A stretch of 39,515 bases of DNA from Nitrospirota bacterium (GTDB lineage: Bacteria > Nitrospirota > UBA9217), in NCBI GenBank assembly GCA_021783455.1, contig JAJXTW010000003.1:1-39515 (forward strand). The letters run 5' to 3'. Below the pieces are notes generated by a model that saw only the letters and a list, made by a program, of their open reading frames with translations, was not told the DNA's origin and did no database searches. Positions 18,993 through 39,515 of the stretch are shown piece by piece (within the stretch, counting starts at the first letter, position 1; every line of letters starts with the position of its first letter). Both the position numbers and the translations under genes were made by a program.

Positions 18993-20294
<1,302 letters not shown>

Positions 20295-21110: not shown

Positions 21111-23599
21111 GACGCACTGATGTCCTGGCCGGCAGGGGGGTCAGAGACGTTCTTGTCCGTTACAATGTCTTTCTCGTCTTCGCGTTCCACCAGCTTGGCA
21201 AAACTGACCACTTTATCCGCCCCTTCGATGTCGAACAGACGAACGCCCTGCGTATTTCTGCCCTGGACCGAGATGTCTTTGGCCCGGATGCGCAACACTT
21301 TACCGTTTGACGTGATAAGGATGATCTCGTCTTCCTCGGAGACTTGCGCCATACCGGTCACTCGGCCGTTCTTTTCCGTGATCTTGATCGTGATAATGCC
21401 CTTGCCGCCGCGGCCCTGGCTGCGGTAGTCCTCGAGGGTGCTCCGCTTGCCGTAGCCTTTCTCGGTCACGGTCAGGATCGTGGAATCGTCGCGCACGATC
21501 TCCATGCCCACGACCTCGTTGCCCTCTTCAAGCCGGATGCCGATCACGCCCTTGCCAATGCGGCCAATCTCGCGCACATCGTTCTCGGTGAAGCGGATCG
21601 ACAGGCCGTCCCGCGTGCCGAGGAACACGTCCCGCTTGCCGTCGGTGACCTCGGCCGAAATGAGTTCGTCACCCTCTTCGAGCGTGATTGCGATGATGCC
21701 CGACGGACGGGGATGGCTGTAGGACTCAAGTTCCGTCTTCTTGATAATGCCCTTCTTTGTGGCCATGAGGATGAAATGGTCAGGCGTGAACGCGCGAATC
21801 GGAAGCGCCGCGGTAACGCGCTCGTCCTGGCTGATCTGGATCAGGTTCACGATGGCCTTGCCCTTGGCCTGCCTGCTCGCTTCGGGAATTTGGTGCACCT
21901 TGAGCCAGTACACCCGGCCCTTGTTCGTAAAGAAGAGGATATAGCTGTGCGCCTTGGCGGTAAAGAGCCGCTCGACAAAATCCTCTTCCTTGGTCTCCAT
22001 GCCGATCTTGCCCTTGCCGCCGCGCTTCTGCGCCCGGTAGTTGGTGAGCACATTACGCTTGATATATCCCGCATGGGAGATCGTGATGACCATCTCCTCG
22101 TCTTTGATCAGGTCCTCGATGTCGATCTCCGAGGTTGCGGCGACGATCTCGGTCCTCCGGACATCGCCGTACTCGGCTCTGATGGCAAGAAGCTCGTCCC
22201 TGATGATCTTCATCACCAGGGCGTCGCTTGCCAGGATCTCGTTCAGGCGCGCGATTTCTTTCAGGACCTCTTCGTATTCGGAGATGATCTTGTCGCGCTC
22301 AAGACCCGTAAGCCGCTGGAGCCGCATTTCGAGGATGGCCTGGGCCTGGATCTCCGAAAGCTTGAATTCGCGCACCAATCCCGTCTTTGCTTCCTCCGGG
22401 TTCGCCGACGCCTTGATCAACGCGATGACGGCATCGAGATTATCGAGCGCGATCTTAAGGCCCAGGAGAATATGAGCGCGTTCTTCGGCCTTCTTGAGAT
22501 CGTACTTGGTTCTCCTGACCACCACTTCCCGGCGGTGTTGGATAAAGTTCGACAGGAGCTTCTTCAGGTTCAATACCCGCGGCTGGTTGTTCACGAGCGC
22601 CAGCATGATCACGCCGAAGGTGGACTGCATGGCCGTGTGTTTGTAGAGCTGGTTCAGGATCACCGTCGAGATCTCGCCTTTTTTGAGATCGATCGCGATC
22701 CGCATGCCTGCACGGTCGGACTCGTCGCGGATCTCGGAAATGCCGGTAATCTTCTTTTCCTGCACCAGTTCCGCGATCCGCTCCAGAAGCCGCGCCTTGT
22801 TCACCTGATAGGGGAGCTCGGTCACGATGATGCTCTCGCGGTCTCCCCTGCCTTCCTCAATGACCGCCCGCGCACGCATCTGGACAATACCGCGGCCCGT
22901 CATGTAGGCCTGGCGAATTCCCTCGTAGCCGTGAATAAAGCCGGCCGTGGGAAAGTCCGGTCCCTTGATGGAACCCATCAGTTCCGGGATCGTGACCTCG
23001 GGATTGTCGATCATCATGACAAGGCCGTCGACAACCTCGGAAAGATTGTGGGGCGGGATGTTCGTGGCCATACCCACGGCAATACCCGCGGAGCCGTTGA
23101 TCAGGAGGTTCGGCACCCGCGTCGGAAGCACCGAGGGCTCGACGGTGGTATCGTCGAAGTTAGGAGTAAAGTCCACTGTCTCCTTGTCGATGTCCGCAAG
23201 CAGTTCTTCCGCTAATTTTGTGAGCCGCGCCTCGGTATACCGGTAGGCCGCGGCCGGATCGCCGTCCACGGAGCCGAAGTTTCCCTGTCCGTCGACCAGC
23301 GGGTAGCGCATGTTAAAATCCTGCGCCATCCTGACCATGGTGTCGTAGACCGCGCTGTCGCCGTGCGGATGATATTTCTTCAGCACTTCACCCACCACGC
23401 CCGCGCTCTTTGAGTACTTCTTATTGTGCAGGAGGCCTTCCCGGAACATGGCGTAGAGGATGCGCCGGTGCACGGGCTTCAAGCCGTCCCGCACGTCCGG
23501 CAGCGCCCGGCCCACGATCACGCTCATGGAGTAGTCGAGGTAGGAGGTTTTCATCTCCTGCTCGATATTGATCTGCGATTTTATCTCTTGAGGTTCCAT
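21107..23599 (-). CDS. gyrA: DNA gyrase subunit A
   Basis: [30 protein letters not shown], GyrA-box QKRGGKG. Confidence 0.98.
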
Positions 23600-23693
23600 A
23601 ATTATAATTTCCGTTTTTCGACCGCCGGCGCACCAGGCAAAGATATGCCCGCCTCAGTTACGGCAAACAGCAACTCGATTGCCTTTGCCCGCA

Positions 23694-26159
<2,466 letters not shown>

Positions 26160-26278
26160 TCAAATGACAATCGCACAAGCTCCACTCTTCAAATCACAAA
26201 CTCCCTACGTCATTGCGCTTGGGTCACGGGTACCCTGAAGCGTGCCGGAGATGCGGCGTCCGGGACCCGGAATGTTCC

Positions 26279-27394
26279 CTACACCCGCATGGGCATGACG
26301 ACGCACTTGTAATGCTCGTCACCCTCTTCCGTGATCAGGCAGGGACTTAAGGCGTCGTTCAGTTCCAAGGCGATCGTCTGCCGGTCCATGGCCGACAACA
26401 CGTCCATAAGGTAACGCGAATTGAAGCCGATGGCGACGCTGTCGCCTTTGTAGTCCACGGCAAGCTCTTCGCTCGCCTCGCCTACTTCCGGGTTGTTCGT
26501 GGAGAGAATGAGCCGGCCTTCCTCAAGCTGCATCTTTACCGCGTTCGTCTTTTCCTTGGACAGGATCGAGACACGCTTCACCGCATGCGTAAACACGTCT
26601 TTGGCGATGGTGACTTTTTTCGTGCTCTTCGCCGGCACTACCTGAAGGTAGTTGGGGTAATTGCCGTCGATAAGCTTCGATACCATGACCAGCCCGTCCC
26701 GTTTGAACAACGCATGGTTCTTGCTGAAGCCCAGCCGGAGCTCGCCCTTGGGAGAGTCCTCCTCAAGGATACGCCTGAGTTCCAGCATGGCCTTTTTGGG
26801 GATGATGAGGCTCTCTTCCTTGTGCTTGGCGTCAATCACCCGGTCGATCATCGAAAGCCGATGGCCATCCGTGCCGACCATGCGGATATTGAGGCCCCCC
26901 TTGACCTGGGACATGTGCACGAACAAACCGTTCAGCACATACCGGGCATCGTTCTCCCCGACGGAGTAGAGCGTTTTTTTGATCATGTCCCGAAGGATTT
27001 CGCCGTCGATTGCGATCATGCCCTCTTCGGCCACATCGGGAAGGGAGGGATATTCGTCCTTGGGCAGCCCGACGAGCTTGAACTGGGACCGGCCCGAGAT
27101 GATCTTGACCCAATTGCCGTCTTCAACCTTGATCTGCAAATCTTCCGCGGGAAGCTCCCTGACGATCTCGTACATTTTCTTGGCGGACACCGTGACGGCC
27201 CCGGGTTTTTCAACTTCTGCCGCATAGCGGCCGCGCAGCCCGATCTCGAGGTCCGTGGCGACAATCTCAATACTGCTGCCTTCGGCGATCAGAAGCATGT
27301 TCGAGAGAATGGGCATGGTGTTCTTTTTTTCCACAACGCCCTGGATCCTCTGCAGCCCCTTCAGGATTTCCTCTTTCTTGATTGTAAGTTTCAT
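26279..27394 (-). CDS. dnaN: DNA polymerase III beta clamp
   Basis: MPILSN, ATDLEIG, GTDGHRL, LIDGNYPNY, VVMPMR. Confidence 0.98.
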   Translation of the reverse strand: MKLTIKKEEILKGLQRIQGVVEKKNTMPILSNMLLIAEGSSIEIVATDLEIGLRGRYAAEVEKPGAVTVSAKKMYEIVRELPAEDLQIKVEDGNWVKIISGRSQFKLVGLPKDEYPSLPDVAEEGMIAIDGEILRDMIKKTLYSVGENDARYVLNGLFVHMSQVKGGLNIRMVGTDGHRLSMIDRVIDAKHKEESLIIPKKAMLELRRILEEDSPKGELRLGFSKNHALFKRDGLVMVSKLIDGNYPNYLQVVPAKSTKKVTIAKDVFTHAVKRVSILSKEKTNAVKMQLEEGRLILSTNNPEVGEASEELAVDYKGDSVAIGFNSRYLMDVLSAMDRQTIALELNDALSPCLITEEGDEHYKCVVMPMRV

Positions 27395-27480
27395 CGGGGA
27401 AGCCTCCTGTCACGTCGTAGAATGGTATCAGAAAACCGGCCAAATAGCAATAAGTTTTTACTTGTTTTTATCATTTAGTT

Positions 27481-28821
27481 TCAATGTTTTATCTGTCTAA
27501 TTAACATCTCGATTTTTGCTTTCAAATCCGGGTCTTTTTCTTTTTTTTCTTCGGTGACTTTGCAGGCGTGAATGACCGTGCTGTGGTCCCTGCCGCCGAA
27601 AAAATTTCCTATTTCCGGCAACGATGAATTGGCAAGAGTGCGGCAGAGATACATCGCCACTTGTCTCGGCAACACCACGGCCTTGGTGCGGCGCTTTGAC
27701 TTGAGGTCCGAGATCTTTACACCGAACGACTCAGCCACGACCTTCTGGATCAGGTCGTTCGTGATCGTTTTTTCCCTGCTGTCGAGCAGATACTTGAGCT
27801 CGTTCTTTGCCAGCTCCTGGGTGATCTCGGTATTCGTGAGCGACGAGACGGCGCCCAGCTTGACCAGTCCGCCTTCGAGCTCCCTGATGTTGCTCTTCAT
27901 CATGGAGGCCAGAAAGTGGGCCACGTCGTCGGGCAAACGTATGCTCCAGAAATCCGCTTTCTTCCGGAGGATGGCGATGCGGGTCTCCAGGTCCGGCGCC
28001 TGGATGTCCGAGATCAGCCCCGACTCGAACCGCGAGCGGAGGCGCTCTTCGATGTCGGGAATTTCTTTGGGCTGGCGATCGCTGGTGAGGACGATCTGCT
28101 TTTGCGCTTCATAGAGAGCGTTAAAGGTGTGAAAAAACTCTTCCTGCGTCCGCTCTTTTCCGGCAATGAACTGGATATCGTCGATCAGCAGCACGTCCAT
28201 GTTCCGGTATTTCTGACGAAACTCCTCCATCCGCTGGTGGCTCATGCGATTTATCAGTTCGTTCGTGAACTGCTCCGAGGACAGATAGGCAACCTTTGTT
28301 CGCGGAGATTTACCCTGGATGTGATGTCCGATCGCATTGATCAAATGGGTCTTGCCCAGTCCCACGCCGCTGTAAATGAACAACGGATTATAGGCCCGGC
28401 CCGGCGCGTCCGCCACGGCCTTTGCCGCCGCATGGGCAAACTGGTTGCTCGGCCCGACGACAAAAGTGTTGAAGGTGTATTTTTTTTCGAACAGGCCGAT
28501 TTTCTCTTCCCGACCTTCTTTTTTTTCTTCTTTTGCATGACGAGTTGTTTTTTTCGCCACCTTCGGCTGAACAAAAAACTCGATGTCCATGTCATCGCGC
28601 TTGGTAACTTCGCGGATAACCTCGGTTACCGTGCTCCAGTGATGTTCTTTAATCCAGTCCCGATGGAATTTACTCGGGACTTCTATCAAAAGCCGGTTGC
28701 CCTCAATCGAAAGGAGCTTCGACTGGCTGAACCAGGTATCGTAACCCTGCTTAGACATTCGGTTTTCTATCAGCAGGAGAATTTCTTCCCAAACTTTTTC
28801 CTGATCCATGCCATACCCCAA
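27481..28821 (-). CDS. dnaA: Chromosomal replication initiator DnaA
   Basis: YNPLFIYSGVGLGKTHL, LLIDDIQF, QEEFFHTFN, SNIRELEG, GGRDHSTVIHA. Confidence 0.98.
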   Translation of the reverse strand: MGYGMDQEKVWEEILLLIENRMSKQGYDTWFSQSKLLSIEGNRLLIEVPSKFHRDWIKEHHWSTVTEVIREVTKRDDMDIEFFVQPKVAKKTTRHAKEEKKEGREEKIGLFEKKYTFNTFVVGPSNQFAHAAAKAVADAPGRAYNPLFIYSGVGLGKTHLINAIGHHIQGKSPRTKVAYLSSEQFTNELINRMSHQRMEEFRQKYRNMDVLLIDDIQFIAGKERTQEEFFHTFNALYEAQKQIVLTSDRQPKEIPDIEERLRSRFESGLISDIQAPDLETRIAILRKKADFWSIRLPDDVAHFLASMMKSNIRELEGGLVKLGAVSSLTNTEITQELAKNELKYLLDSREKTITNDLIQKVVAESFGVKISDLKSKRRTKAVVLPRQVAMYLCRTLANSSLPEIGNFFGGRDHSTVIHACKVTEEKKEKDPDLKAKIEMLIRQIKH

Positions 28822-29356: not shown

Positions 29357-29599
29357 ATGTCAGCAGATGTGAAGGCCGATCAGGTTCTCGATGCAAAGGG
29401 TTTGAGCTGTCCTCTCCCGATTTTGAAAACAAAGAAAGCGGTGGAAGCACTTTCAAAGAATCAGGTGTTAAAAGTAGAAACCACGGATCCGGGATCAAAG
29501 AATGATATGGCTTCCTGGGCAAAAAGAACGGGCAATGAGATCCTGAAAGTTGAAGAGGGATCGGGGACATTCACGTTCTTTATCAAGAAAACCGCATAA
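29357..29599 (+). CDS. tusA: TusA-family sulfur carrier
   Basis: LDAKGLSCPLPILKTKKA, TTDPGS; GGAGG RBS. Confidence 0.92.
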   Translation: MSADVKADQVLDAKGLSCPLPILKTKKAVEALSKNQVLKVETTDPGSKNDMASWAKRTGNEILKVEEGSGTFTFFIKKTA

Positions 29600-29608
29600 G
29601 GAGAAAAA

Positions 29609-30082
29609 ATGGCAAACAAGAAAATGACAATTATTGCATCGAAGGGTTCGCTGGACATGGCTTATCCTCCCTTGATCCTTGCCACCACGGCAGCAGCCAT
29701 GGATGTTGATGTTACGATATTCTTCACGTTCTTCGGTCTCGACATCATAAAAAAGGGCAATGCAGACAATCTGAAAATCTCACCCATCGGAAATCCGGCA
29801 ATGCCGATGCCGATACCCATCCCGACGTTGGTCGGGTCGCTCCCCGGCATGGAAGCCATGGCGACCTCCATGATGAAATCCATGTTCAAGAAGCACGGCG
29901 TTGCATCGATCGGAACGCTGCTCGACCTCGCCAAGGAGAGCGGTGTTAAACTCATAGCCTGCCAGATGACCATGGATGTCATGGGCGTCAAGCAGTCGGA
30001 CATCGTGGACGGGGTTGAGTTCGGCGGCGCGGCCATGTGGCTGGATGAAGCTTCTGATTCACAGATCAATCTGTTCGTGTAA
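29609..30082 (+). CDS. DsrE2-like (DsrE/DsrF/DrsH-like) sulfurtransferase
   Basis: IIASKGSLDMAYPPLILATTAAAM..FFTFFG, IACQMTMDVMG; paired with tusA as in tusA-dsrE2 clusters. Confidence 0.88.
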   Translation: MANKKMTIIASKGSLDMAYPPLILATTAAAMDVDVTIFFTFFGLDIIKKGNADNLKISPIGNPAMPMPIPIPTLVGSLPGMEAMATSMMKSMFKKHGVASIGTLLDLAKESGVKLIACQMTMDVMGVKQSDIVDGVEFGGAAMWLDEASDSQINLFV

Positions 30083-30112
30083 GCCGCAGATCAAAAATAT
30101 GATGCGTTATTG

Positions 30113-30149
30113 AAAACCGGTTCTGCAAACAGAACCGGTTTTTTGTTTT
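30113..30149. terminator. Bidirectional intrinsic terminator
   Basis: AAAACCGGTTCTG-CAAA-CAGAACCGGTTTT perfect stem between convergent operons. Confidence 0.85.
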
Positions 30150-30190
30150 CTCGGCCTTCTCCTAAAATATTTTTAATATAGGGTCGCCTC

Positions 30191-31441
30191 TCAGAACTCA
30201 TATCTCATCTGTGTATATACATTGTCATTCTTTGCAAATTGCCCGAATTGGCTCCACGGCTTGCCGCCACCGAAGACGTTGCCTCCCATTGCAAGCCAAA
30301 TGGCGTCCGTCAGATTATACTTCACCTCGGGATTCAGCATGTAATCTCCATCCGACAAACCGTAAAACGTAAAGAAGGACAGCCTCAATGTCTGGTTCAT
30401 CAGAAACTGAGTGAGCCGCATTGTCGCAAGCTGATGGAGATGTTTCTCTTGCGGGAAACCGGCGGGCAGGTTTTGAACATAGGCTGAATAATCCTGCATG
30501 TATTCGCCGTAGTACTGAAGCCCCAGCGTGAAGTCCTCCCAGAGCTGTCGTTGATACCCGATCAAATACCGCGTTTGCGAGTTGGGAATCATCGGATCAG
30601 TACCGTGCCTGTCCTGACTCGAATCGTAGTAACCGGCTTCGAGGCTCACGACGCCCTCAAAGGCCTTGCCCTGGGAACTCGCACCGTAGACATTGAGCTT
30701 GGGATAAAAAAGTGTAAGCTTTGTGGGCGTTACCGGGTTGTCGGGCATTATCGACGGCTGCCGTGAGTATCCGCGATAGTAATATAATGATGTATCGAAT
30801 CCGGCCACGTCGCGGTATATACGCATTGCCGTTTCCGCCTCATGGAGGTCTCTGTACGGACCTTGCGCTTCCCTGTTCGTAATGCCCGCCATAGGATCGA
30901 ACATCCAGAATCTTGTCGGGTCAGGGTAATTGTTCGGTTCGAAATACGGGATGGCGATAAGTTCGATTGACGCAAATTCCGGATAGAGACCGATCTTTGC
31001 GCCGTCAACGCCCTTTTTCAGATACTCCAGCGGTCTGCCTGAGAAGAACGCGGCGTAGTCTTTCGGGAATATGTCATTAATAAACAGAAGATCGCCGACA
31101 CCCCAGGTGACGATCTGCCGACCGACGCGCGCGTCCCACTTCTCCGCAGTAAAGTCGAAATACCCTTCCCGGAGTTCCGTAGACGCTTTTTTATCCAGGT
31201 TGTCATAAAAAGCATCTTCCTTCACAAGTAAGTGAAAAGGATCCGCGGCCGCGTCGAGTTTAAGTTGCGCCCGCTCCTCCGACAATTTATAGTCTTTGCC
31301 GTCGGGGTCGTCGGTAACGGTATCTCTTGCGTAGTTTCCCTGAACAAATCCATGCAGGGAAACGTCGCCTGCTGACGCTGTGGAACAGGTAATAATCACA
31401 AGCGCAAGACCAAGAACCGATTTCACAACATTCTCGTTCAT
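30191..31441 (-). CDS. Outer-membrane beta-barrel protein (DUF1302-like)
   Basis: Signal peptide, LREGYFD, RVGRQIVTWG, C-terminal YTQMRYEF beta-signal. Confidence 0.8.
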   Translation of the reverse strand: MNENVVKSVLGLALVIITCSTASAGDVSLHGFVQGNYARDTVTDDPDGKDYKLSEERAQLKLDAAADPFHLLVKEDAFYDNLDKKASTELREGYFDFTAEKWDARVGRQIVTWGVGDLLFINDIFPKDYAAFFSGRPLEYLKKGVDGAKIGLYPEFASIELIAIPYFEPNNYPDPTRFWMFDPMAGITNREAQGPYRDLHEAETAMRIYRDVAGFDTSLYYYRGYSRQPSIMPDNPVTPTKLTLFYPKLNVYGASSQGKAFEGVVSLEAGYYDSSQDRHGTDPMIPNSQTRYLIGYQRQLWEDFTLGLQYYGEYMQDYSAYVQNLPAGFPQEKHLHQLATMRLTQFLMNQTLRLSFFTFYGLSDGDYMLNPEVKYNLTDAIWLAMGGNVFGGGKPWSQFGQFAKNDNVYTQMRYEF

Positions 31442-32101
31442 TTACACTCCCTGAGATTTTATCGCGCGAATGCAGACGAAACCCGCGTTTTCAACCAACC
31501 GGTCATAAGCGATTTCATCATGAGGTTGATCGGACGGAGGCAAACAGAGCGCTGAAGAATAACGATCAATCTTTAGCCCTGAACCTGCTATCAACGATTC
31601 GGCCTCTTCGATACGGTAAAAACGGGCCTCCTGGTAGATAGGATGCCCTTGCGCTTTCTTTGTTTCATACAACTGTCCCCAAGGACTTTCTTTGTTGATC
31701 ATTCCCACGATCAACGCCCCATTCCTCTTTAAGACTCTTTTCGCTTCGGACAGCACCGCTGCCGGATCAGCAACAAAACAAAACGTAAAAAGGATAAAAA
31801 CAGCGCCGAAGGACTCATTGCCGAACGGCAACGCCTCGGCTCCTCTCTGCAAAACCCTGACTCCCCGGCTTTCAGCTATTTCAAGTTCCTTTGCAGAAGG
31901 ATCTATGCCAAGGTCAATTCCCAGCGCTTTTGCAAACCTGCCGGTGCCGACGCCGACCTCCAGAAAAGGACGTTCAATGCCTCTCATTAAAAATCGAACT
32001 GCCTCAACTTCAACCCTGAACAGTTTTTTCCCCACAGGGCTGTCGAACCACCTGTCGTAGTCTTCAGCGCGCTGATCGAAGACCGAGACCGCACCTGTCA
32101 T
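31442..32101 (-). CDS. Class I SAM-dependent methyltransferase (type 11)
   Basis: YDRWF, LEVGVGTGRF, GIDPS, AEALPF, EAKRVLK. Confidence 0.9.
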   Translation of the reverse strand: MTGAVSVFDQRAEDYDRWFDSPVGKKLFRVEVEAVRFLMRGIERPFLEVGVGTGRFAKALGIDLGIDPSAKELEIAESRGVRVLQRGAEALPFGNESFGAVFILFTFCFVADPAAVLSEAKRVLKRNGALIVGMINKESPWGQLYETKKAQGHPIYQEARFYRIEEAESLIAGSGLKIDRYSSALCLPPSDQPHDEIAYDRLVENAGFVCIRAIKSQGV

Positions 32102-35100
32102 TCGATCATCCTCCTTGGCGGCTGTTTGAGATAGCGTTCTGAAAAGAGGCTGTCCTCGACGCCGATATTGTAATCTACCTTCGTGAACGTCACTTCCGTG
32201 ATATGACCGCTCTGGACGTTCTTCATCGTGCGTTTCGTCACGGTGGGGATGCCCTTCACGTCCCTGATCTCGTCGGCGGTGAATGCCTTATAAAGATCTC
32301 CTTTTTTGTCGTAGTATTCCTCTTTGAGCGGCAGAAAGCTCGTTTTGTCCACCCATGATAGTTTGTATCTGTAATCCACGTCGTCTACCTTGGGCGTGCT
32401 CTTGACCACGACGCAGTCCTTTGCGCCGATCTTTTCCTCCTTTACAACAACATGGGTATCGTCCTCCAGGTACCGTCCCGACACGTCCTCATAGGAGAAA
32501 TCCGATCCCACGAAGCTTGAGCTCTTGTCCTGCGCGGCGATCCGTCTCACCATGCTGATTGCGGGAATAAAGAGCCACCGGTCCGCGTCCCTTCCGGGGT
32601 GCTTCCAGACCATGAAGGTCATGTCCTTCACGTCGGCCGGCTGGAAGAAGTACATGAAGTACTTCTGCTCGCCGCCGGTCGTGCCGTAATTCTTTCGGAT
32701 CATGGTCATTTCGCGTATCCGCTCCTGTCCTCCGCTGCTTACAAGCTTCATCATGACCCGTGCCTTAAAATCTTTGCCTGCGTACAGAAAAGCGGTCTGC
32801 GACTTCTTCATGAGCTCCGCACCGTTGTCGGCGGCAGACGATACAGATGCAGCAAGCACGAATGCTAATACCAGCGATGTTGCGGCAACACGTTTCATGT
32901 TGGTTCCTCCTTCGAATAGCCAGCCCTGAAGTAAGGTGATGAGGGCCGGCAGATAGAGCATGGTCATAAGAGCGCTCAAAAGCATCATTGTTACGATAAA
33001 AGCTCCCACAGTGATATACGGCGTGAGCGGGGCGAAGATCATAACTGCGAAAGAAGCGGCAAACAGCACGGCGTTCCGCATGATCCCCTTGCCGGGCCGC
33101 GCCGCGGTCCAGCAGCAGGCGTCATGCAGGGACTCACCCGGCGCATCCACGAGCCGCTGCCTAAGGCGGCTTACAAAATGGATCGCGAAATCCACGGCCA
33201 TGCCGAGGGAGAGGCAGCTCATGACCGATATCGGCATGTCGAAGTCCTTGCCCGCGAACCCGACAGCGCCGTAGATCATGAGGACCGTGAAGATAAGAGG
33301 GATATACCCTACAAGCGCCCACTTAAACGACCGGAAGTCAAGAGCCAGGACGCAGAAGACCGCGACCACGGCAAGGAGAAAACCCTTGACCATGTCCCAG
33401 AGCACTTCATGGTTCCAGACGAGATTGAAGTAAGCTATGCCGGCCGGCTTTATCTCCATGGGCGTCGGATGGGCTTTTTTGTATTCATCCGCCGCGCTGA
33501 TCACCGTTTGCATGGCCTTTGCGTCCCAGGTCTTGAGCTGCACCCAGATGTTCGCGCGTTTGAACGGGTAGTCTACGACATTGTCCAGATCGGACGGTTT
33601 TGCGGACATGGAGAAGAGAAAAAGATACTGGCCTATGGTCTCTTTCTTATCCGGGACCGCGTCGTATTTCGGGTTGTTGTCATGGAGCACCTGGTTGATC
33701 CTTTTCACATAATCTACGACTGACGTCGTTTTTCCCACAACCGGGAGTTTTTCGAGATGACGCTGCAGGCCTTCGATATAGCGCATGGCTTCGGGCGTTT
33801 TGATGTAATCGTCATTCGGCGCGATTGCAACTATATATCCGAGGTCGGTCCCGCCGAGGGCCGCGTTCATCACCCGGTCCGCGGTGCGGACGTCGCTGTC
33901 CTTCTTGAACCACTCCACGAGGTTGTTGTTCACCTTGGTATGCGCGATGCCGGTGATTGCAATGACCGCGAGAACGAGTCCGACGGCCACGACCGTCTTT
34001 GAGTGGTCCGCGCCCAGCCCGGCGAGTTTCCTGAGGAACCGCGCGGTCCGACCGTGCTCTACGTCTTCCCTGGCGGCGATCTTCGCGATCTTTTCTTCGC
34101 TGACAAACGTGAACATAGCTGGGATGAAGCTGAAACTGAGCACCCTCAGCGCGATCGTGCCAAAGGCCACCAGCCCGCCGAAGACCTTGACCGGGATGAT
34201 GTTCATGAACAAGAGCACGCCAAACCCCGCCGCCGTGGCCAAGGCGGTGTTTCGCACGGGCCTGCTCACCGCCCGCATGGTTTCGAGGATCGCCTGTTTT
34301 TTATTCTTCGTCTCCCGGTACCGGAAGTAGAACTCGTTGAAGATGTGCATGCTGTCCGTGGCGATTGCCATCAGAAATACCGGCGCCATGGAGCTCATGA
34401 TGTGGATCGGAAAGCCCAGACCGATCAGGAGCCCCATGCTCCAGACGATGCTGATCATGGCGTCCATCATCAGGGTTATGGAAAGGAAGAGGTCCCGGAA
34501 CATGAGATACCGGACGATGAGCATAACCATGCCAGCGATAGGGGCGAACACGGCCATGAGCTTGAACATTTCAGCTCCGAAGGTGTCCCTCGCAACGGGG
34601 TCCCCCGCGACGTAGAATTTTTCCTCGCCCTTTTCCTTGGCCACGATCTCGCGTATTTTGTCTGCGATCTCCTTGCCGTTTGCCCCTTTTTCGAGGGGGG
34701 CGTAAATGGCCGTGGTCTTCCCGTCTTTTGATATGATCCGATTTATGAAGAGCGGATTCTCGTAAAGCATCTTCCGAAGCGCGTCGATGCCTTTGGCGTT
34801 TTGCGGAGCCGCGGTCATGAGCGGGGCGACTCTGAGAGTTCCATTTTCCACGGAAACATTATCGATCGTGGTAAAGCTCGACACGTCACGGGCAGCAACA
34901 CCCTTGATCTTCAGTATCTCGTCGGTGATACGCTGGATCTTGCCGAGAGTGTCCGGATTCAGGACGCCCTTCTCGTTCACAATCCCCACGGCGATCGTGT
35001 CCTCGTAGAGGCCGAAGGTCTTTTCAACGCTGTCGTTCCAGACCCTGACATCGGACGTGGCCGGAAGCATGTTCTTCGGGTTCGTGTCGGTCCGCATCTT

Positions 35101-35199
35101 CGGGAACTGCGTCATGAAAAGAAGCGTCAGTATTACCGTCAGGACAACGACCAGTTTCGGGTGCTCCACGGAAAACTCAACCAAGGAAAATTTGCGCAT
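32098..35199 (-). CDS. MMPL/RND-family transporter fused in frame to a LolA-like outer-membrane lipoprotein-sorting domain
   Basis: Two MMPL repeats (ATDSMH; AVDFAIHF); residues 768-1033 start with a signal peptide and contain QPADVKDMTFM and SFVGSDFSYED. Confidence 0.88.
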   Translation of the reverse strand: MRKFSLVEFSVEHPKLVVVLTVILTLLFMTQFPKMRTDTNPKNMLPATSDVRVWNDSVEKTFGLYEDTIAVGIVNEKGVLNPDTLGKIQRITDEILKIKGVAARDVSSFTTIDNVSVENGTLRVAPLMTAAPQNAKGIDALRKMLYENPLFINRIISKDGKTTAIYAPLEKGANGKEIADKIREIVAKEKGEEKFYVAGDPVARDTFGAEMFKLMAVFAPIAGMVMLIVRYLMFRDLFLSITLMMDAMISIVWSMGLLIGLGFPIHIMSSMAPVFLMAIATDSMHIFNEFYFRYRETKNKKQAILETMRAVSRPVRNTALATAAGFGVLLFMNIIPVKVFGGLVAFGTIALRVLSFSFIPAMFTFVSEEKIAKIAAREDVEHGRTARFLRKLAGLGADHSKTVVAVGLVLAVIAITGIAHTKVNNNLVEWFKKDSDVRTADRVMNAALGGTDLGYIVAIAPNDDYIKTPEAMRYIEGLQRHLEKLPVVGKTTSVVDYVKRINQVLHDNNPKYDAVPDKKETIGQYLFLFSMSAKPSDLDNVVDYPFKRANIWVQLKTWDAKAMQTVISAADEYKKAHPTPMEIKPAGIAYFNLVWNHEVLWDMVKGFLLAVVAVFCVLALDFRSFKWALVGYIPLIFTVLMIYGAVGFAGKDFDMPISVMSCLSLGMAVDFAIHFVSRLRQRLVDAPGESLHDACCWTAARPGKGIMRNAVLFAASFAVMIFAPLTPYITVGAFIVTMMLLSALMTMLYLPALITLLQGWLFEGGTNMKRVAATSLVLAFVLAASVSSAADNGAELMKKSQTAFLYAGKDFKARVMMKLVSSGGQERIREMTMIRKNYGTTGGEQKYFMYFFQPADVKDMTFMVWKHPGRDADRWLFIPAISMVRRIAAQDKSSSFVGSDFSYEDVSGRYLEDDTHVVVKEEKIGAKDCVVVKSTPKVDDVDYRYKLSWVDKTSFLPLKEEYYDKKGDLYKAFTADEIRDVKGIPTVTKRTMKNVQSGHITEVTFTKVDYNIGVEDSLFSERYLKQPPRRMIE

Positions 35200-35264: not shown

Positions 35265-35687
35265 CTAAAACGTAAGGTTCATATCCGCCGGGATCACGGT
35301 TTCCTTGTAATAATGCGCGGGATCGGCAACCTTCACGCCGTCGATTAATTGTTTCGGAGAGATATTGAAGAGCGACACGTTCAAGGGACAGGCAAGTACG
35401 GTCGCGCCCTCGGCGATCAGCATGAAGAAGAGATCCTCGACGGATGGAAGGTCCATTTCCTCCATCTTCTTCATCACCGCGTCGCCCTCTTCCTTCGGCT
35501 GATCAGGCAGGCACTTGAGGTCTTTCACTTTTTCTTTGTGCACCGCGTTGATGCCCCGTGAGCCGAAGAACATGGTGACCTTCGAGCCTTCCCGAAGTAA
35601 GCTAAGCGCGGTCATGAGAGCGTTGTATACCTGGCAAAGCTCGTCATGGAAGCACATGATCGATACATTTTTTATTATCTTGGTCAT
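35265..35687 (-). CDS. DsrE-family protein
   Basis: VTMFFGSRGINAV, VLACPLN, C-terminal NLTF. Confidence 0.75.
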   Translation of the reverse strand: MTKIIKNVSIMCFHDELCQVYNALMTALSLLREGSKVTMFFGSRGINAVHKEKVKDLKCLPDQPKEEGDAVMKKMEEMDLPSVEDLFFMLIAEGATVLACPLNVSLFNISPKQLIDGVKVADPAHYYKETVIPADMNLTF

Positions 35688-36027
35688 ACTGGTTCTCCTT
35701 TCGCATCCCCAAACCCCGATTCATTGGCGCTGGAGTATCTCCATAGAGCTGTTCCAAACCTTCCTGCATCAAGCTGCACGCCTGACAGATCTTTTCATTT
35801 GCGATTCCATAATACACATTAACGCCTTCCCGTCTCGTCGTAAGGATGCGCTCCATGCGCATGAGAGCCAGATGCTGAGACGAATTCGCCTTAGACACTC
35901 CGAGCTTCTCGGTGATCTCGCCGGCAGTCAGTTCTCCTGACCGGAGCAGACAGAGTATCTCTAGCCTCGTGGGGTTGGAGAATATCTTGCAAAAATCAGC
36001 GTGCAGTTTCAAGATCTCCTTCTTCAT
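35644..36027 (-). CDS. ArsR/SmtB-family repressor, BigR/SqrR-like
   Basis: FCKIFSNPTRLEILCLL, SQHLALMR, RREGVNVYY, KICQAC; ATG 36027 overlaps the sqr stop (ATGA). Confidence 0.85.
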   Translation of the reverse strand: MKKEILKLHADFCKIFSNPTRLEILCLLRSGELTAGEITEKLGVSKANSSQHLALMRMERILTTRREGVNVYYGIANEKICQACSLMQEGLEQLYGDTPAPMNRGLGMRKENQYDQDNKKCIDHVLP

Positions 36028-37214
36028 GGCAGATTGCTGAGCCCCCTCTTCATCTTCCAGAGGAAGTATTTTTCGAACCGGACCTTCATCCACTTCGCCC
36101 AGATGGTCTTCTTCGTGTAGGAACTCTGGCGCGGCGGAAGCACGGGATAGGCCTTCATGTATGCTGCTGTGTTTCCCATGTCCATGAGACAAACCACGCC
36201 GATTTCCGACGGGGGAGGCGGGGTCTTCCCGGTGATGCCGGCAGCGATAGTTGCCGCGGCAATCTTCGCCATCTTCACCGTCATAAATCCGGTCTTGGGA
36301 ACGCCCGTCGGCACCGGCGTCGCCTCCGGCGGTGCAATGGCCATGGTAACACCGACGGCAAAAATATTTTTATATTTCGTGTGACGATAGTTCTTGTCAA
36401 CCGGGATGAACCCGCGGGGATTTCCCAGCGGCATGACGGCAGGCACACCTTTGAACGGCGGCGCGATCATGGCGAGTTTGAAAGGCAGCTTTGTGCCGTC
36501 CTTGAGCTTGATTTCTCCGGGCGTCACCTCTTCAATGGCCTGGCTGATGAGGGGCTTGATGTCCCGCTCGGCAAATTCGTCTTCCATGAAGCGCTTTGAT
36601 TTGCCGAGACCGCCGACGCCCATGTGGCCGAGATAGGGTTCCGAGGTGAGATAGAGGATGGGTACTTTGCTACGTATTTTCCGGCGGCGAAGCTCGGTGT
36701 CCATCTCAAACGCGAGCTCATAGGACGGGCCGAAACAGCTCACCATCTGCGACGAGCCGACAACAATCGGACCGGGGTTCTCCAGGATCTTTTTCCACGA
36801 TTGCCCGGCTCTTAATGCATGATCGAGGGTAAACGTACAGTCGGTATGGCCCCTGTCAGGTCCCAACCCGGGGATCTCATCAAAGGAAAGATGCGGTCCC
36901 GTAGATATTACGAGAAAGTCATAGGGCAGCTCTTTCCCTTTAGCCGTGATGACCTTCGATGACTCAGCGTCAACCTGTTTTGCCGCATCGTGGACGAAAT
37001 CGATCTCTTTGGGTTTAAGAATCTCGCTCACCTTGAGGGTAATATCTTCCGGCTTTCTCCACCCCATGATAAGCCACGGCAGCGACGGAAGGAATACGAA
37101 TCGATCATCGTCGCTCACCACGGTCACGTCGGCTTTCTTCCCGAGCAGACGCTTAAGCTCGAAGGCCGCTGTCAATCCCCCGAACGATCCCCCTAACACA
37201 ACGATCCTTGACAT
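36024..37214 (-). CDS. sqr: Sulfide:quinone oxidoreductase
   Basis: VVLGGSFGG FAD motif, SCFGPSYE, GVPKTGFMT, VCLMDMG, amphipathic C-terminus KVRFEKYFLWK. Confidence 0.85.
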   Translation of the reverse strand: MSRIVVLGGSFGGLTAAFELKRLLGKKADVTVVSDDDRFVFLPSLPWLIMGWRKPEDITLKVSEILKPKEIDFVHDAAKQVDAESSKVITAKGKELPYDFLVISTGPHLSFDEIPGLGPDRGHTDCTFTLDHALRAGQSWKKILENPGPIVVGSSQMVSCFGPSYELAFEMDTELRRRKIRSKVPILYLTSEPYLGHMGVGGLGKSKRFMEDEFAERDIKPLISQAIEEVTPGEIKLKDGTKLPFKLAMIAPPFKGVPAVMPLGNPRGFIPVDKNYRHTKYKNIFAVGVTMAIAPPEATPVPTGVPKTGFMTVKMAKIAAATIAAGITGKTPPPPSEIGVVCLMDMGNTAAYMKAYPVLPPRQSSYTKKTIWAKWMKVRFEKYFLWKMKRGLSNLP

Positions 37215-37264
37215 AATAACCTCTCCTTTCTGCATGTATCTGCGTGACAGATCTTGTTCAAATT

Positions 37265-37939
37265 TTATTTACTGCGTCCATACCGTGTCAGATAACCGAC
37301 GACCTCTGTCTTTTCATTATCCGTAATTATCTTTTTGCCCATGGATCGCATATTGGACTGCATTCTATCTACGACTTTGGGCCATTCGTCGGCTGTATGA
37401 AGCTTTGGGTCCGGAAGAGGATGACACTGCGAGCACGTCTCCTTAAAGAGGACGGCGCCTTGTGATCCAGGGGCAGGAAGTTCGCTGGGAGACAGGGACT
37501 TCATGGCATTGGTCTTTAAGTAAGACACGATCGCCTGTTGTTCTTCGGACGATGGCAACTCTACATTCATCATTCCTATCATGGCGGACATCATGGACAT
37601 GCGAGAGAACATCCGCGAGGTTACGCCCGGCCATTGCTCGGCCGTATGCATTGCCGGACTAGGGAGGTTGTGACATTGGGTGCAATAGCGGACCAGAAGT
37701 TTGGCCCCTGGGCTGTCCGGCAAAGGAAGGTCTTCCGGTGTGATCCCAAGCGGGAGCATGTCCGGCATCATCCTTTGCATCATTTCTTTCATTCCTCCCC
37801 GGCCCATCATTCCACCGCTCGTCATCATGCCTCCAGGCATCCCTAATTGACTGCTCCCGGACCCATGCATTGCGACAATACCTGTTATCCCGAATACGAT
37901 CAAAACAATCGCAATTATCAGCAATCGAATATTCTTCAT
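37265..37939 (-). CDS. Exported diheme cytochrome c with Gly/Met-rich N-terminus
   Basis: Two CxxCH motifs (CTQCH, CSQCH), each followed by HTAxxWP...RM; N-terminal hydrophobic segment. Confidence 0.85.
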   Translation of the reverse strand: MKNIRLLIIAIVLIVFGITGIVAMHGSGSSQLGMPGGMMTSGGMMGRGGMKEMMQRMMPDMLPLGITPEDLPLPDSPGAKLLVRYCTQCHNLPSPAMHTAEQWPGVTSRMFSRMSMMSAMIGMMNVELPSSEEQQAIVSYLKTNAMKSLSPSELPAPGSQGAVLFKETCSQCHPLPDPKLHTADEWPKVVDRMQSNMRSMGKKIITDNEKTEVVGYLTRYGRSK

Positions 37940-37955: not shown

Positions 37956-38288
37956 CTATGAAATATCCTTTTTTATCTTTTCATACTCTTCTTTGGTGAT
38001 TTCCCCCTGAGCATATCTTCTTTTCAGAACATCAAGCGCCGTTTCCTGTGGCTGCGGCCCGCGATCTTTCTCAACAACCGCTACTATCCATCGGACAAGC
38101 AGGACGATCCCGGCGATTACGGCAATCCAGAATCCGACCATGATGACGCTCATGAACCAACCCATACCGTATCCCCATCCCATCATTCCAGGCCCCATAC
38201 CGTAACCACCGCCCGGACCCTGTGCAAAAGCATATGAAGCCTCGCTGAGATAGACCGCTGTTATGAATGTTCGTAATGCTTTTTTCAT
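37956..38288 (-). CDS. SHOCT-domain membrane protein
   Basis: GMGPGMMGWG, one transmembrane helix, ALDVLKRRYAQGEITKEEYE. Confidence 0.88.
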   Translation of the reverse strand: MKKALRTFITAVYLSEASYAFAQGPGGGYGMGPGMMGWGYGMGWFMSVIMVGFWIAVIAGIVLLVRWIVAVVEKDRGPQPQETALDVLKRRYAQGEITKEEYEKIKKDIS

Positions 38289-38363: not shown

Positions 38364-38645
38364 TCAAAACATTCCTGTGACCTTTTCGCCGCTCGTTATA
38401 ATGTCCGTCAATTTATCGTAGTCGATAATTTTGACCCGATCATCCATCTCGGTATCCTTGAGACCCCGGAGCCTCTTGTCGTCATCCAGGACATACACTG
38501 TCCGGGCAAAATCGCCGAGCCGTTCTTTTTTCGCAAAATACACGCCATTCTGCAGCAAGATAAGATCGGCCCCGCTTTCTTTCGCAAGAGTCAATCCGAG
38601 TGCTCCATCAGTCGTATCCGGCGCGCTCTTTATCATCACGAACAT
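38364..38645 (-). CDS. DsrH/TusB-like protein
   Basis: LILLQNGVY, VYVLDDDKRLRG, IIDYDKL. Confidence 0.85.
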   Translation of the reverse strand: MFVMIKSAPDTTDGALGLTLAKESGADLILLQNGVYFAKKERLGDFARTVYVLDDDKRLRGLKDTEMDDRVKIIDYDKLTDIITSGEKVTGMF

Positions 38646-38656: not shown

Positions 38657-39010
38657 CTAGAATATCATGGTCGATTTTGCTTCCTTCAGCAGTCCCGCAA
38701 TCTCTTTGGCGCCGACCACCTTGACGTTTTCGACGAGCTCGTTTGACGGGACCCCCTGCGTTTTGAGCGACGCAGTGTCGGCATAGACGGCGACTCCCAT
38801 TTCGACGCAGTCCTTGAGAGTGCCTTCGAGATTCGTGAAGCCGGTACCTTTGTCGTCCTGCCCCTTCTTTGCAAGCAGCACCCCGCCATCGACCAGAATG
38901 AGGTCAACGCTTAATTCCCCGGACACCGCGCCGAGGGCGTGGCGCACGGCCTCGGCTGCGTTGATGTCGCCGTAGGGAGATCTCTTCAGGATCATTGCAA
39001 CATTTGCCAT
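38657..39010 (-). CDS. DsrF/TusC-like protein
   Basis: ILKRSPYG...EAVR, LVDGGVLLAKKGQ, VYADTASL. Confidence 0.82.
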   Translation of the reverse strand: MANVAMILKRSPYGDINAAEAVRHALGAVSGELSVDLILVDGGVLLAKKGQDDKGTGFTNLEGTLKDCVEMGVAVYADTASLKTQGVPSNELVENVKVVGAKEIAGLLKEAKSTMIF

Positions 39011-39019
39011 ACGCTCCTC

Positions 39020-39376
39020 CTATGCACCGAGATTAATCCACACGTCCGTCTCGCCCATGGTTGCAAACAGGCCTTTGAGCGAGCCGACTTCCGTACCTGC
39101 AAGATAGTCTTCTTTCGCTGCACGGCGAAAGTTGAGGCACCCGCCTCAGAGATACACCTTCAAGCCTTTTTGTATGAGCCTGGTGAACTCCTCCTCGGCG
39201 TTCAGAATGCCTTTCGCTTTCTGTTTGGTCAGGAAACAATAGATTCCGTCAGCCGATGCGATGAGATTGACGGTATGGCCCTTGTTCAAAGCGGATTCGG
39301 CAATGCGGGCGCTTGTTAGTGTGTTCTCGTAGGAATACGGCGAGGTGGTCAGATACAGCGTAACGGTTTTCGGCAT
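39020..39376 (-). CDS. DsrE/TusD-like sulfurtransferase with in-frame UGA (probable selenocysteine, U77-G-G-C), 118 aa
   Basis: TTSPYSYE, ASADGIY; frame stays open through TGA (39148-39146) as GGCLNFRRAAKEDYLAGTEVGSLKGLFATMGETDVWINLGA* to a TAG that overlaps the dsrF RBS. Confidence 0.85.
39112..39131 (-). promoter_or_regulatory. Candidate bacterial SECIS hairpin
   Basis: CUUUCGC-CGUGCA-GCGAAAG; stem starts 14 nt and loop 21 nt after the UGA, with GU near the 5' side of the loop. Confidence 0.6.
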
Positions 39377-39387
39377 AGAACCCTCCT

Positions 39388-39513
39388 TTATACGAGTGTT
39401 ATTTCACTGTCGCACATGATCGATGTCTTCAAGCTTTGGTACGTAATGGTATCGTTCCTTGCGATGAGCCGTCCGTTCAAGACAACGGAAGGACAGGGAA
39501 CTGGGTCTCGTTG
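39388..39513 (-). CDS. C-terminal end of a small thioredoxin/glutaredoxin-like protein (5' part outside the window)
   Basis: ...RDPVPCPSVVLNGRLIARNDTITYQSLK...* resembles the cis-Pro/beta-strand end of the Trx fold; stop abuts the AGGAGG RBS of dsrE. Confidence 0.5.
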   Translation of the reverse strand, partial: QRDPVPCPSVVLNGRLIARNDTITYQSLKTSIMCDSEITLV

Positions 39514-39515
39514 CC

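Follow-up and report, generated by a model that had tools for sequence, protein, structure and literature searches.

A predicted DsrE-family selenoprotein heading a conserved DsrEFH-like gene trio in Nitrospirota

The locus studied here lies at one end of the window, the whole stretch of 39,515 nt that was analysed, and raises the question of whether an in-frame TGA terminates a short protein of the DsrE family or is translated as selenocysteine (Sec) within a longer one. The gene starts on the minus strand with an ATG at 39376, a Shine-Dalgarno sequence (AGGAGG, 39382..39387, minus strand, recognized by sequence inspection) lying 5 nt upstream and the contig end 139 nt 5' of it. Seventy-six sense codons lead to the residues LKVYL and then to the TGA (39146..39148, minus strand), the proposed Sec codon 77, followed by GGC GGG TGC, another 38 codons and a TAG (39022..39020) that overlaps the Shine-Dalgarno sequence (GGAGGAG) of the downstream gene (ATG at 39010). 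Translated with TGA as U, the complete frame (39020..39376, minus strand) encodes 118 residues and contains a UxxC motif, U77-G-G-C80. The original prediction of a hidden selenoprotein had described an ORF ending at 76 residues, a read-through product of about 118 and a terminal TAG overlapping the next Shine-Dalgarno sequence, all of which were confirmed on the minus strand, in coordinates as well as in content. A split gene with a second start past the UGA was also considered and rejected, the first in-frame codons there including no ATG, GTG or TTG.

The sequence was compared with contigs from three DNA studies and an RNA library, four runs in all, matched at 85% likeness and all derived from relatives. 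Contigs from the three DNA runs span the UGA, with no difference there among the 40 listed (123 further). The RNA-library contigs spanning the gene belong to relatives and are silent on strand, transcription and read-through.

The UGA column and the protein family

Among the best 99 matches obtained from 301 Nitrospirota genomes (E <= 2.8e-35), 89 contain exactly one TGA and the other 10 none, as counted by hand from the printed rows; these 89 come from about 81 genomes and at least a dozen families. A narrower search in 61 related genomes gave 30 strong matches with exactly one TGA and two with none. The TGA column is identical across 64 aligned relatives, in which the residues directly past it are conserved as either GGC[LMV]N[FY]RRAAK or TGCM..RGL. 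Cys takes the place of Sec in the rest of the 99, as seen at five loci with the motif CGTC in place of UGGC or UTGC, and the same column is Cys in the DsrE-like protein of this genome's own dsr cluster and in E. coli TusD (Cys78). Over 50 sequences position 77 is always Cys or U, and C80 is kept in 90% or more. The proposal that the UGA occupies the catalytic cysteine position thus agrees with the column found in homologues, and the case foreseen as speaking against a selenoprotein, close relatives all carrying TGC or TGT, was not encountered, TGA recurring across the phylum. Beside the UGGC type of the window there is a paralogous UTGC lineage, and a third one, UGTC, is located directly 5' of a gene resembling sulfide:quinone reductase (SQR).

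The Pfam DsrE profile (PF02635) runs across the in-frame UGA, matching residues 5–114 of 118 with profile positions 3–114 of 116 (E 4.1e-14; 53.2 bits, cut-off 22.7), so that, together with the residues kept in the 64 relatives, conservation extends beyond the UGA. An AlphaFold2 model of the read-through protein (pLDDT 89.7) places U77 at the end of strand 73–77 and the start of helix 78–83, and Foldseek relates this model to YchN (TM 0.84), DsrE (0.85) and TusD (0.85); a 76-residue product would lose two strands and two helices of the modelled fold. At a finer level, all three equivalog models scored below their cut-offs, namely TIGR03012 (TusD/DsrE) on the E protein encoded here (16.3 bits vs 89.25), TIGR03010 (TusC/DsrF) on the F protein of the next gene (41.3 vs 94.15) and TIGR03011 (TusB/DsrH) on the H protein following it (40.1 vs 49.2). 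The hhalign comparison sets U77 opposite TusD Cys78 in a weak match (probability 6.8%, E 0.005) and MAFFT puts both in the same column, while the YchN profile (1jx7) matches with E 4.4e-10 and aligns its CKTC with UGGC. By these scores the E protein is, in sequence, closest to the CxxC-bearing YchN type and is not a DsrE/TusD equivalog. Therefore, of the original designation as a DsrE/TusD protein, membership in the DsrE family stands, by profile and fold, and the equivalog assignment does not.

RNA-level constraint on the hairpin downstream of the UGA

The bacterial SECIS consensus is a hairpin shortly 3' of the UGA, with a G in the apical loop and a set spacing. In the window, a SECIS-like hairpin (39112..39131, minus strand) is formed by a 7-bp stem, CUUUCGC/GCGAAAG, pairing 39131–39125 with 39118–39112 around the loop CGUGCA (39124–39119); the stem begins 14 nt and the loop 21 nt past the UGA, and the original prediction had named this stem, this loop and a distance of 21 nt. 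In 23 of 36 relatives the stem has 8 bp and the loop is GUGC, corresponding in the alignment to positions 18–25 paired with 30–37 from the UGA and a loop containing G26-U27. The window has a C.A mismatch in place of the closing pair, 39119 being A (coding strand) vs G in those 23 relatives; this change is the only variant listed there in the four runs, present in all contigs of three of them and in part of those of the fourth.

That constraint acts at the RNA level on this downstream hairpin is evident from its conservation. Over 36 distinct relatives 91% of the cells are paired, and the synonymous diversity of the whole gene reaches its minimum at codons 82–88 (0.175 vs a mean of 0.514), the lowest of 110 codon windows and a value as low as which was found in none of 100000 permutations. 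Folding of the 63 nt from the UGA onwards gives –23.8 kcal/mol vs –16.2 ± 3.0 for shuffled sequences (z –2.55; 3 of 200 shuffles as good), on its own modest evidence for a hairpin beyond chance. In the UTGC lineage the corresponding position is taken by a stem of 6 bp; of its cells 90.7% are paired and 13 have both partners changed, and none of 500 shuffles attains its covariation score. In the UGGC lineage just two cells are changed on both sides and the score is reached by 20 of 500 shuffles; as this hairpin scarcely varies, its support comes from conservation and not from covariation. G26 never varies in either alignment; U27 does not vary in one of them and reaches at least 90% in the other.

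A scan of 38900–39515 against Rfam (E <= 10) found no SECIS family, giving three chance-level matches (E 3.4–4.2); it is in the comparative alignments that the conserved hairpin with apical G-U agrees with the bacterial SECIS type. The original prediction also mentioned a second hairpin, UGAGGC/GCCUCA, enclosing the UGA itself. It does exist in the window (39133..39148, minus strand) but is not conserved: in the 36 relatives 77.8% of its cells are paired, and three of the six pairs are often broken (2–15 in 24, 4–13 in 13 and 6–11 in 10 of the 36).

The genome, 89% complete, contains all four genes of the Sec machinery that were looked for: selA (615.7 bits), selB, split between the ends of contigs C43 and C269, selD (376.6 bits), which carries one TGA itself, and the tRNA-Sec gene selC with anticodon TCA. 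The selA/selB and selD genes are found on contigs other than that of the locus described here.

With these data the readings of the TGA can be weighed. A broken gene, in which the TGA would be a nonsense mutation or an assembly error and a 76-residue fragment or nothing would be made, has a probability that we regard as close to negligible. Gene callers do stop at the TGA, all 120 listed database homologues ending near residue 76 (63–64% query coverage, 109 of them 75 or 76 aa long); a database search with residues 74–118 alone returned no candidate, and no database protein of 64–207 aa shares words with them. This reading is nevertheless at odds with a TGA recurring in 89 of the best 99 matches and at least a dozen families, with 41 downstream codons conserved as protein, with the Cys seen in the column elsewhere, with three DNA studies whose contigs have no listed difference at the UGA and with the incomplete fold that a 76-residue product would have. 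Comparative data alone show just that the codon is translated, and nothing more specific speaks for decoding as a standard amino acid (Trp, Gly or Cys) through an altered code or leaky termination, without Sec, which appears highly improbable in view of a column alternating with Cys only, of an apical G-U at SECIS distance and of a complete Sec machinery including the TGA-bearing selD. A general reassignment of TGA was rejected as well: out of 17 window genes checked, 8 end with TGA, and internal stops are absent from all 16 genes besides this one. Considering the UGA/Cys column, the conservation downstream, the hairpin and the sel genes, it is very probable that the product of 39376..39020 (minus strand) is a selenoprotein with 118 residues and the DsrE/YchN fold, in support of the original prediction. 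SelB and tRNA-Sec would decode the UGA as Sec77, directed by the hairpin 14 nt downstream.

Gene neighbourhood and candidate role

Downstream of the predicted selenoprotein gene and on the same minus strand, the window encodes a DsrF/TusC-like protein (38657..39010, 117 aa; Pfam DsrE, E 1.6e-16) without Cys in the active-site column and a cysteine-free DsrH/TusB-like protein (38364..38645, 93 aa; Pfam DsrH, E 5.7e-10). Then follow a small SHOCT-domain membrane protein (Pfam; 37956..38288), a membrane-anchored c-type cytochrome of 224 aa (37265..37939; Pfam Cytochrome_CBB3 and dihaem cytochrome c), an SQR of 403 aa (36024..37235; PDB 3hyv, E 9.5e-96, and 3sy4, E 8e-94), nearest to the Aquifex and Acidithiobacillus enzymes, and a DrsE_2-family protein of 140 aa (35265..35687; PF13686, E 5e-14). 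The SHOCT protein and the cytochrome are missing at this place in two same-genus relatives, where H is directly followed by SQR, and many relatives retain the DrsE_2 protein downstream of SQR, 13 loci showing it at +1.3 to +2.5 kb.

Gene order was counted only at loci with at least 2000 nt downstream. F follows E in 32 of 34 such loci; by lineage, the UGGC-type loci have F in 18/18, H in 17/18 and SQR in 15/18, and the UTGC-type loci F in 13/15, H in 14/15 and SQR in 8/15. Taken together, 23 of the 33 sufficiently long UGGC/UTGC loci have an SQR homologue behind the trio; among Sec-type loci of such length SQR is absent in 11 of 34. The nearest Cys-type homologues have a recognizable H partner in neither of two loci. 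The dsr cluster of the same genome is separate, on contig C272, and comprises dsrAB, dsrN, dsrMK-like genes and a Cys-type pair of DsrE- and DsrH-like genes. Beyond the original prediction, then, the predicted Sec-type E is the first gene of a conserved E(Sec)-F-H trio, mostly located before SQR and outside the dsr cluster. Neither tusA nor yeeE/yedE was found among the annotated window genes downstream of the trio, the YeeE-family genes of the genome being on other contigs. There is also a second copy, with a TauE/SafE-like permease upstream; the idea that it is the same locus on an allelic contig was discarded, the two being 86% identical over 855 nt in a match that stops 12 nt 5' of the ATG.

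From the conserved E-F-H order and homology, the E protein is probably the E subunit of a DsrEFH-like hetero-oligomer formed with the products of the next two genes. Sec77 would be its nucleophile, judging from the column shared with TusD Cys78 and DsrE Cys78. Given that the trio mostly precedes SQR, its most likely role, one to which we give slightly less than even confidence, would be that of acceptor and relay of sulfane sulfur made by SQR, which Sec77 would take up as a selenenyl-persulfide (Se-S-S(n)H) and hand on. Cys80 of the UxxC motif could resolve this adduct through an intramolecular Se-S bond.

UxxC is a signature of thiol/selenol-disulfide redox proteins, and for this reason a redox role in place of the carrier one is a real possibility, although we consider it rather unlikely. 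The protein would still be a genuine selenoprotein, its UxxC cycling between selenol/thiol and Se-S bond either to reduce polysulfide or persulfide or to keep SQR products or cysteines in the right state, with F and H as scaffolds. Such an enzyme would fit the (near-)invariance of the motif (C80 in at least 90% of the 50 sequences), the absence of a second Cys at that spacing in TusD, the CKTC of YchN as nearest solved relative and the catalogue entries that place DsrE-like among thiol-based redox motifs (PMC1088965, PMC1794560). Fold and active-site column, on the other hand, match the sulfur-carrying DsrE/TusD, the E-F-H order is that of known sulfur-transferase complexes, and a carrier and a resolving cysteine are compatible with each other. 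It is very unlikely that the selenoprotein handles selenium instead, as the original prediction had suggested for the alternative to sulfur, for example by passing selenide or selenopersulfide to SelD: the local YedF match which would suggest it is weak (TIGR03527, E 0.009, residues 61–87) and, with 15.9 bits vs a cut-off of 110, far under the threshold, and the genes conserved nearby encode SQR and sulfur-carrier-type proteins; selD and selA are not among them and, like selB, lie on other contigs.

Returning to the sulfane-sulfur relay, a wider and more doubtful proposal is that the trio represents a third, selenium-dependent type of DsrEFH, a dedicated acceptor of SQR sulfane sulfur in dsrAB-bearing Nitrospirota, with a Sec77 selenenyl-persulfide resolvable by Cys80 and with an otherwise conserved H-SQR backbone that accommodates two or more exchangeable E/F cassettes (UGGC, UTGC). 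Sulfur-metabolism surveys would not have seen it because gene callers cut E at residue 76.

DsrEFH genes serve as markers of sulfur oxidation vs reduction in dsrAB-bearing organisms. A second DsrEFH type, defined partly by a conserved cysteine, was added in 2026 (PMC13293266). The Sec-type set is frequent in Nitrospirota (about 81 of the 301 genomes, among the best 99 matches), and public protein sets hold just fragments of E without the active site, so that surveys made from predicted proteins would miss or misjudge it. If the SQR link is true, the trio would be a testable candidate for the step moving SQR-derived sulfane sulfur into cytoplasmic sulfur metabolism, and a natural case of a persulfide-carrying site at which selenium stands in for sulfur. 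Annotation gains from it a clean family for a selenoprotein-aware model.

Comparison with known systems

A selenoprotein family termed DsrE-like, with UxxC and PF02635, has been catalogued since 2005 (PMC1088965, PMC1794560), the entries including sequences from Desulfovibrio vulgaris and the Sargasso Sea (PMC1088965, PMC1794560, PMC9312934, PMC13188914); one prokaryotic catalogue lists it in its table, and another in a table footnote, among the thiol-based redox motifs. Reviews give the accession WP_014524487.1 for the Desulfovibrio member. As DsrE-like selenoproteins had already been described, a point that the original prediction made correctly, the window gene is a further member of a known family and not of a new kind. 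Compared by description, both share PF02635, a UxxC with Sec first, Cys homologues and a downstream hairpin with an apical G, although the catalogue entries give neither function nor context. The window gene differs in heading a conserved E-F-H trio, mostly with SQR after it, in at least a dozen Nitrospirota families. Among solved structures, the closest relative by sequence and one of the best by fold is YchN of E. coli (1JX7; DsrE family), whose CKTC corresponds to UGGC but with Cys instead of Sec. To our knowledge YchN is not a member of an E-F-H trio with SQR.

DsrEFH is usually placed in the dsr cluster, and TusBCD beside ribosomal and tRNA-thiolation genes. With type I DsrEFH of Allochromatium vinosum (2HY5) and TusBCD of E. 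coli (2D1P) the trio has in common the gene order (E/D, F/C, H/B) and the fold (TM 0.85). The alignments place Sec77 in the TusD Cys78 column, followed by an invariant Arg; in DsrE this column is that of Cys78, according to the literature. Unlike these systems, the one described here has Sec for Cys and a second Cys three residues on, absent at that spacing in canonical TusD, misses all three equivalog models, includes a cysteine-free H-like protein and adjoins SQR outside the dsr cluster.

DsrEFH type II is a divergent three-gene set frequent in dsrAB-bearing Nitrospirota, for which a sulfur-transferase role downstream of SQR has been proposed (Plum-Jensen et al., ISME J 2026, PMC13293266). 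Its functional Cys67 is kept by 99.3% of the 985 sets, the set is syntenic with tusA and yeeE/yedE, and the article has no word starting with 'seleno' (PMC13293266). By its description, type II resembles the trio as a divergent DsrEFH-like set of three genes in Nitrospirota and differs from it in having Cys67 where here there are Sec77, encoded by UGA, and an SQR neighbour; the trio may overlap with type II 'subtype 1'.

The DsrE-family gene and its in-frame UGA

The DsrE-family gene at 39376..39020 (-), here called E, starts with an ATG at 39376 behind an AGGAGG ribosome-binding site (39387-39382) and runs through 76 sense codons (...LKVYL), an in-frame TGA as codon 77 (39148..39146), GGC GGG TGC and 38 further sense codons to a TAG (39022..39020), which shares bases with the ribosome-binding site of F, the gene that follows on the same strand (ATG at 39010). 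This is the frame that the original prediction had described, and its translation with the TGA read through has 118 residues and the motif U77-G-G-C80. The Pfam DsrE model PF02635 spans residues 5-114 without interruption over the UGA. An AlphaFold2 model built with 50 relatives as input (pLDDT 89.7, pTM 0.85) has residue 77 where a strand (73-77) ends and a helix (78-83) begins, its top structural matches being YchN (TM 0.84), DsrE of the Allochromatium vinosum DsrEFH crystal (0.85) and TusD (0.85). Judging from this model, termination after residue 76 would cost the fold two strands and two helices.

Searched in all six frames, 61 related genomes yielded 30 strong matches that carry a single TGA each, and two matches (52-53% identity) without any. 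When 301 genomes of the phylum were searched with a profile, made from both TGA and non-TGA kinds so that its E-values favour sequences resembling its members, 99 matches came up at E <= 2.8e-35; by a count of the printed rows, 89 of them had one TGA and ten had none. The 89 are spread over about 81 genomes and at least 12 families, so that a sense codon (TGC or TGT) in all close relatives, which would have pointed to a nonsense mutation or a sequencing error, is not what we see. From both searches 69 loci were retrieved, 64 of which carry the TGA in a single alignment column. The stop-free homologues have Cys there, either within ELCGTCL (loci L040, L041, L090, and L091) or SLCLTT (L050), as does a DsrE-like protein from the dsr cluster of the same assembly (VCEAC). 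U77 also aligns with residue 78 of Escherichia coli TusD, a Cys, both by MAFFT and by profile alignment, the latter weak alone (probability 6.8%, E 0.005). Conservation continues past the UGA: among 50 aligned sequences, columns U/C77 and R84 show no variation and C80 is kept in at least 90%. Naming the types by the Sec codon residue and the next three, the UGGC lineage continues with [LMV]N[FY]RRAAK (57-97% identity to the E of the window) and the UTGC lineage with M..RGL (about 40%); the UGTC motif was found in one of the retrieved loci.

The genes for selenocysteine insertion, on which the original prediction depended, were all found in the assembly (302 contigs, 89% complete): selA (615.7 bits), selB as two fragments, each at a contig end (C43 and C269), a tRNA-Sec (selC) with anticodon TCA, and selD (376.6 bits; contig C150:1439-2353), which has its own in-frame TGA and is therefore likely itself a selenoprotein. 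Reassignment of TGA was rejected, this codon being the stop of eight of the 17 well-defined genes of the window and the other 16 being free of internal stops. Since TGA is an ordinary stop and UGA alternates with Cys, selenocysteine is the only reading with any support, and we consider it highly probable at codon 77. The DsrE domain across the UGA, the alternation with Cys and the Sec genes thus favour the main proposal of a hidden DsrE-family selenoprotein with UGA at the catalytic Cys column. The window also has four tRNA-Ser genes (anticodons GGA, CGA, GCT, and TGA) and one tRNA-Arg at 17186-18934 (-), adjoining serS (18993-20294), and these tRNA-Ser genes are the source of sub-threshold tRNA-Sec matches.

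Hairpins around the UGA

Both hairpins originally proposed are present on the minus strand, one containing the UGA (UGAGGC/GCCUCA, 39148-39133) and one downstream of it (39131-39112), with a 7-bp stem CUUUCGC/GCGAAAG and a CGUGCA loop. Only the second is conserved, as three of the six pairs of the first are broken, each in 10 to 24 of 36 UGGC-type sequences. The distance of 21 nt from the UGA holds for the loop of the downstream hairpin, its stem beginning at 14 nt. The 63 nt starting at the UGA fold somewhat better than shuffled sequences (z -2.55; 3 of 200 shuffles as good), and an Rfam scan of the E region gave no matching family.

Numbering from the U of UGA as 1, the downstream stem (18-25 with 30-37) is paired in 91% of the cells of 36 distinct UGGC-type sequences. 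Both sides have changed in two cells only and the observed covariation score is reached by 20 of 500 shuffles, because the stem hardly varies. The codons that form it, 82-88, have a synonymous diversity of 0.175 against a gene mean of 0.514 (37 sequences), the minimum over 110 windows of seven codons, which none of 100000 random seven-codon draws reached. It is conservation, not covariation, that is the telling signal here. Position 39119 of the window is A on the coding strand and G in 23 of 36 relatives, leaving a C.A mismatch at the closing pair of the 8-bp stem; the change is synonymous (GCA/GCG, Ala), and this difference is the only variant listed at that place for the contigs of four runs (all contigs of three, part in the fourth).

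In the UTGC lineage another stem (AGCCGC/GCGGCU, loop GGUCUU) occupies this place (19-24 with 31-36); it is paired in 90.7% of cells and changed on both sides in 13 of them, from G-C to C-G or U-A at one pair and from C-G to A-U or U-A at another. Its covariation score was reached by none of 500 shuffles, with slid controls far lower. Both lineages have an invariant G26; U27 never varies in one of them and reaches at least 90% conservation in the other, which puts the apical-loop G-U equally distant from the UGA in both. A downstream hairpin with an apical G-U fits the general form of bacterial SECIS elements.

Operon context and further copies

Next to E come a DsrF/TusC-like gene (F, 38657-39010, -) and a DsrH/TusB-like gene (H, 38364-38645, -), both recognized by Pfam. 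All three fall well under curated equivalog cut-offs (E was tested against TusD/DsrE); cysteine is absent from the H-like protein and, at the active-site column, from the F-like one. Then follow, on the same strand, genes for a SHOCT membrane protein, a membrane-anchored c-type cytochrome, a sulfide:quinone reductase (SQR, 36024-37235; E 9.5e-96 to the Aquifex enzyme), a DrsE_2 protein and a 1033-aa protein that joins an MMPL/RND-type transporter to a LolA-like domain at its C-terminus (32098-35199, -). An MMPL gene has the equivalent position in one congener (L093). Two congeners with long contigs show the order E(TGA)-F-H-SQR-DrsE_2-MMPL, from which the SHOCT and cytochrome genes are missing. 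Among retrieved loci with at least 2000 nt downstream, UGGC-type genes are accompanied by F in 18/18, H in 17/18 and SQR in 15/18 cases, and UTGC-type genes by F in 13/15, H in 14/15 and SQR in 8/15; the sole UGTC locus counted has F and H, and SQR is absent. The contig ends 139 nt upstream of E. Elsewhere in the window, dnaA, dnaN, gyrB and gyrA lie in a row (21107-28821, -), so that it probably adjoins the chromosomal replication origin, and a DsrE2-like sulfur-carrier gene (29609-30082, +), just under its curated cut-off (206.4 against 210 bits), adds to the DsrE-superfamily genes within a 10-kb stretch.

The assembly holds another Sec-type copy of the gene (contig C195, L087:2853-3206, +), which shares the TGA and has an F-like gene of its own after it. 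Protein identity to the window copy is 95%; the DNA is 86% identical along 855 nt, a match that breaks off 12 nt upstream of the start codon. Further upstream of the C195 copy is a TauE/SafE-like permease gene. Two to three copies were also seen in several relatives (G015, G120). Within the genus of the window, E and F of UTGC-type operons (L042-L049 and others) reach only 38-46% identity to those of the window, against 77-87% for H and 82-86% for SQR; these identities suggest the swap of an E/F cassette while the H-SQR backbone was kept. A third lineage of the DsrE family is more remote (L130:1998-2339, +; Pfam DsrE E 1.2e-22); its gene has an in-frame TGA (A-U-G-T-C) and apparently stops at another TGA. 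Immediately downstream is a gene for an SQR-like flavoprotein (L130:2494-3642, +; nearest model type III SQR, 242 bits against a cut-off of 525), with F and H absent, and the pattern was also flagged in two more genomes of its genus (G050, G041). The dsr genes of the assembly are away from the trio, on contig C272 (dsrAB at 29541-31723), in a cluster (L133:1800-10156) of dsrA, dsrB, a dsrN-like amidotransferase, dsrM- and dsrK-like genes and Fe-S proteins. This contig also holds a separate Cys-type (C-E-A-C) DsrE-like gene and a DsrH-like gene, a set that may be one of the two DsrEFH types, I or II, already published.

Possible role and relation to known systems

A role is proposed here on the basis of a DsrE fold whose active-site column is a translated UGA, a second conserved Cys three residues on, the E-F-H order and the frequent linkage to SQR. 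The three proteins would form a hetero-oligomer like DsrEFH/TusBCD, in which Sec77 would attack sulfane sulfur made by SQR (polysulfide or a persulfide carrier) to give a selenenyl-persulfide; the sulfur would then be passed on, or Cys80 would resolve the adduct to a Se-S bond. That E of the trio is such a sulfur carrier is a tentative assignment, which we hold at somewhat short of an even chance. The UxxC pair could also mark a redox enzyme, a less likely role that would be compatible with the carrier one. A part for E in selenium handling is improbable, the sole point behind it being a sub-threshold match to YedF.

A "DsrE-like" selenoprotein family (PF02635, UxxC) was already catalogued from Sargasso Sea data and Desulfovibrio vulgaris, and is given as functionally uncharacterised in reviews of 2022 and 2026, as far as the accessible text of these papers goes (PMC1088965, PMC1794560, PMC9312934, PMC13188914). 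The E of the window has every sequence-level feature described there and is therefore filed as a new member. It is no equivalog of DsrE or TusD, and its nearest relative by sequence is YchN, whose CKTC aligns with UGGC. Public annotation truncates the family systematically: the 120 homologues listed from a 5.8-billion-protein collection all cover only 63-64% of the E query, 109 of them being 75 or 76 aa long and the named ones called DsrE family or TusD component, and no protein of 64-207 aa sharing words with E residues 74-118 was found in that collection.

DsrEFH type II, in the available portion of its description (PMC13293266, 2026), has Cys67 and synteny with tusA and yeeE, occurs in 985 genomes, many of them Nitrospirota, and keeps the functional cysteine in 99.3% of sets; no word starting with "seleno" occurs in that text. 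The trio described here differs in its active residue and its neighbours. It may overlap "subtype 1" of that study. In the accessible literature on DsrEFH or DsrE with selenocysteine, Nitrospirota included, we found no description of a Sec-bearing DsrEFH-like operon; a Sulfobacillus study matched DsrEFH and selenocysteine. Overall, this kind of selenoprotein was already known, and what is new is its phylum-wide spread, the E-F-H-SQR context, the two versions of E/F and the blanket mis-annotation.
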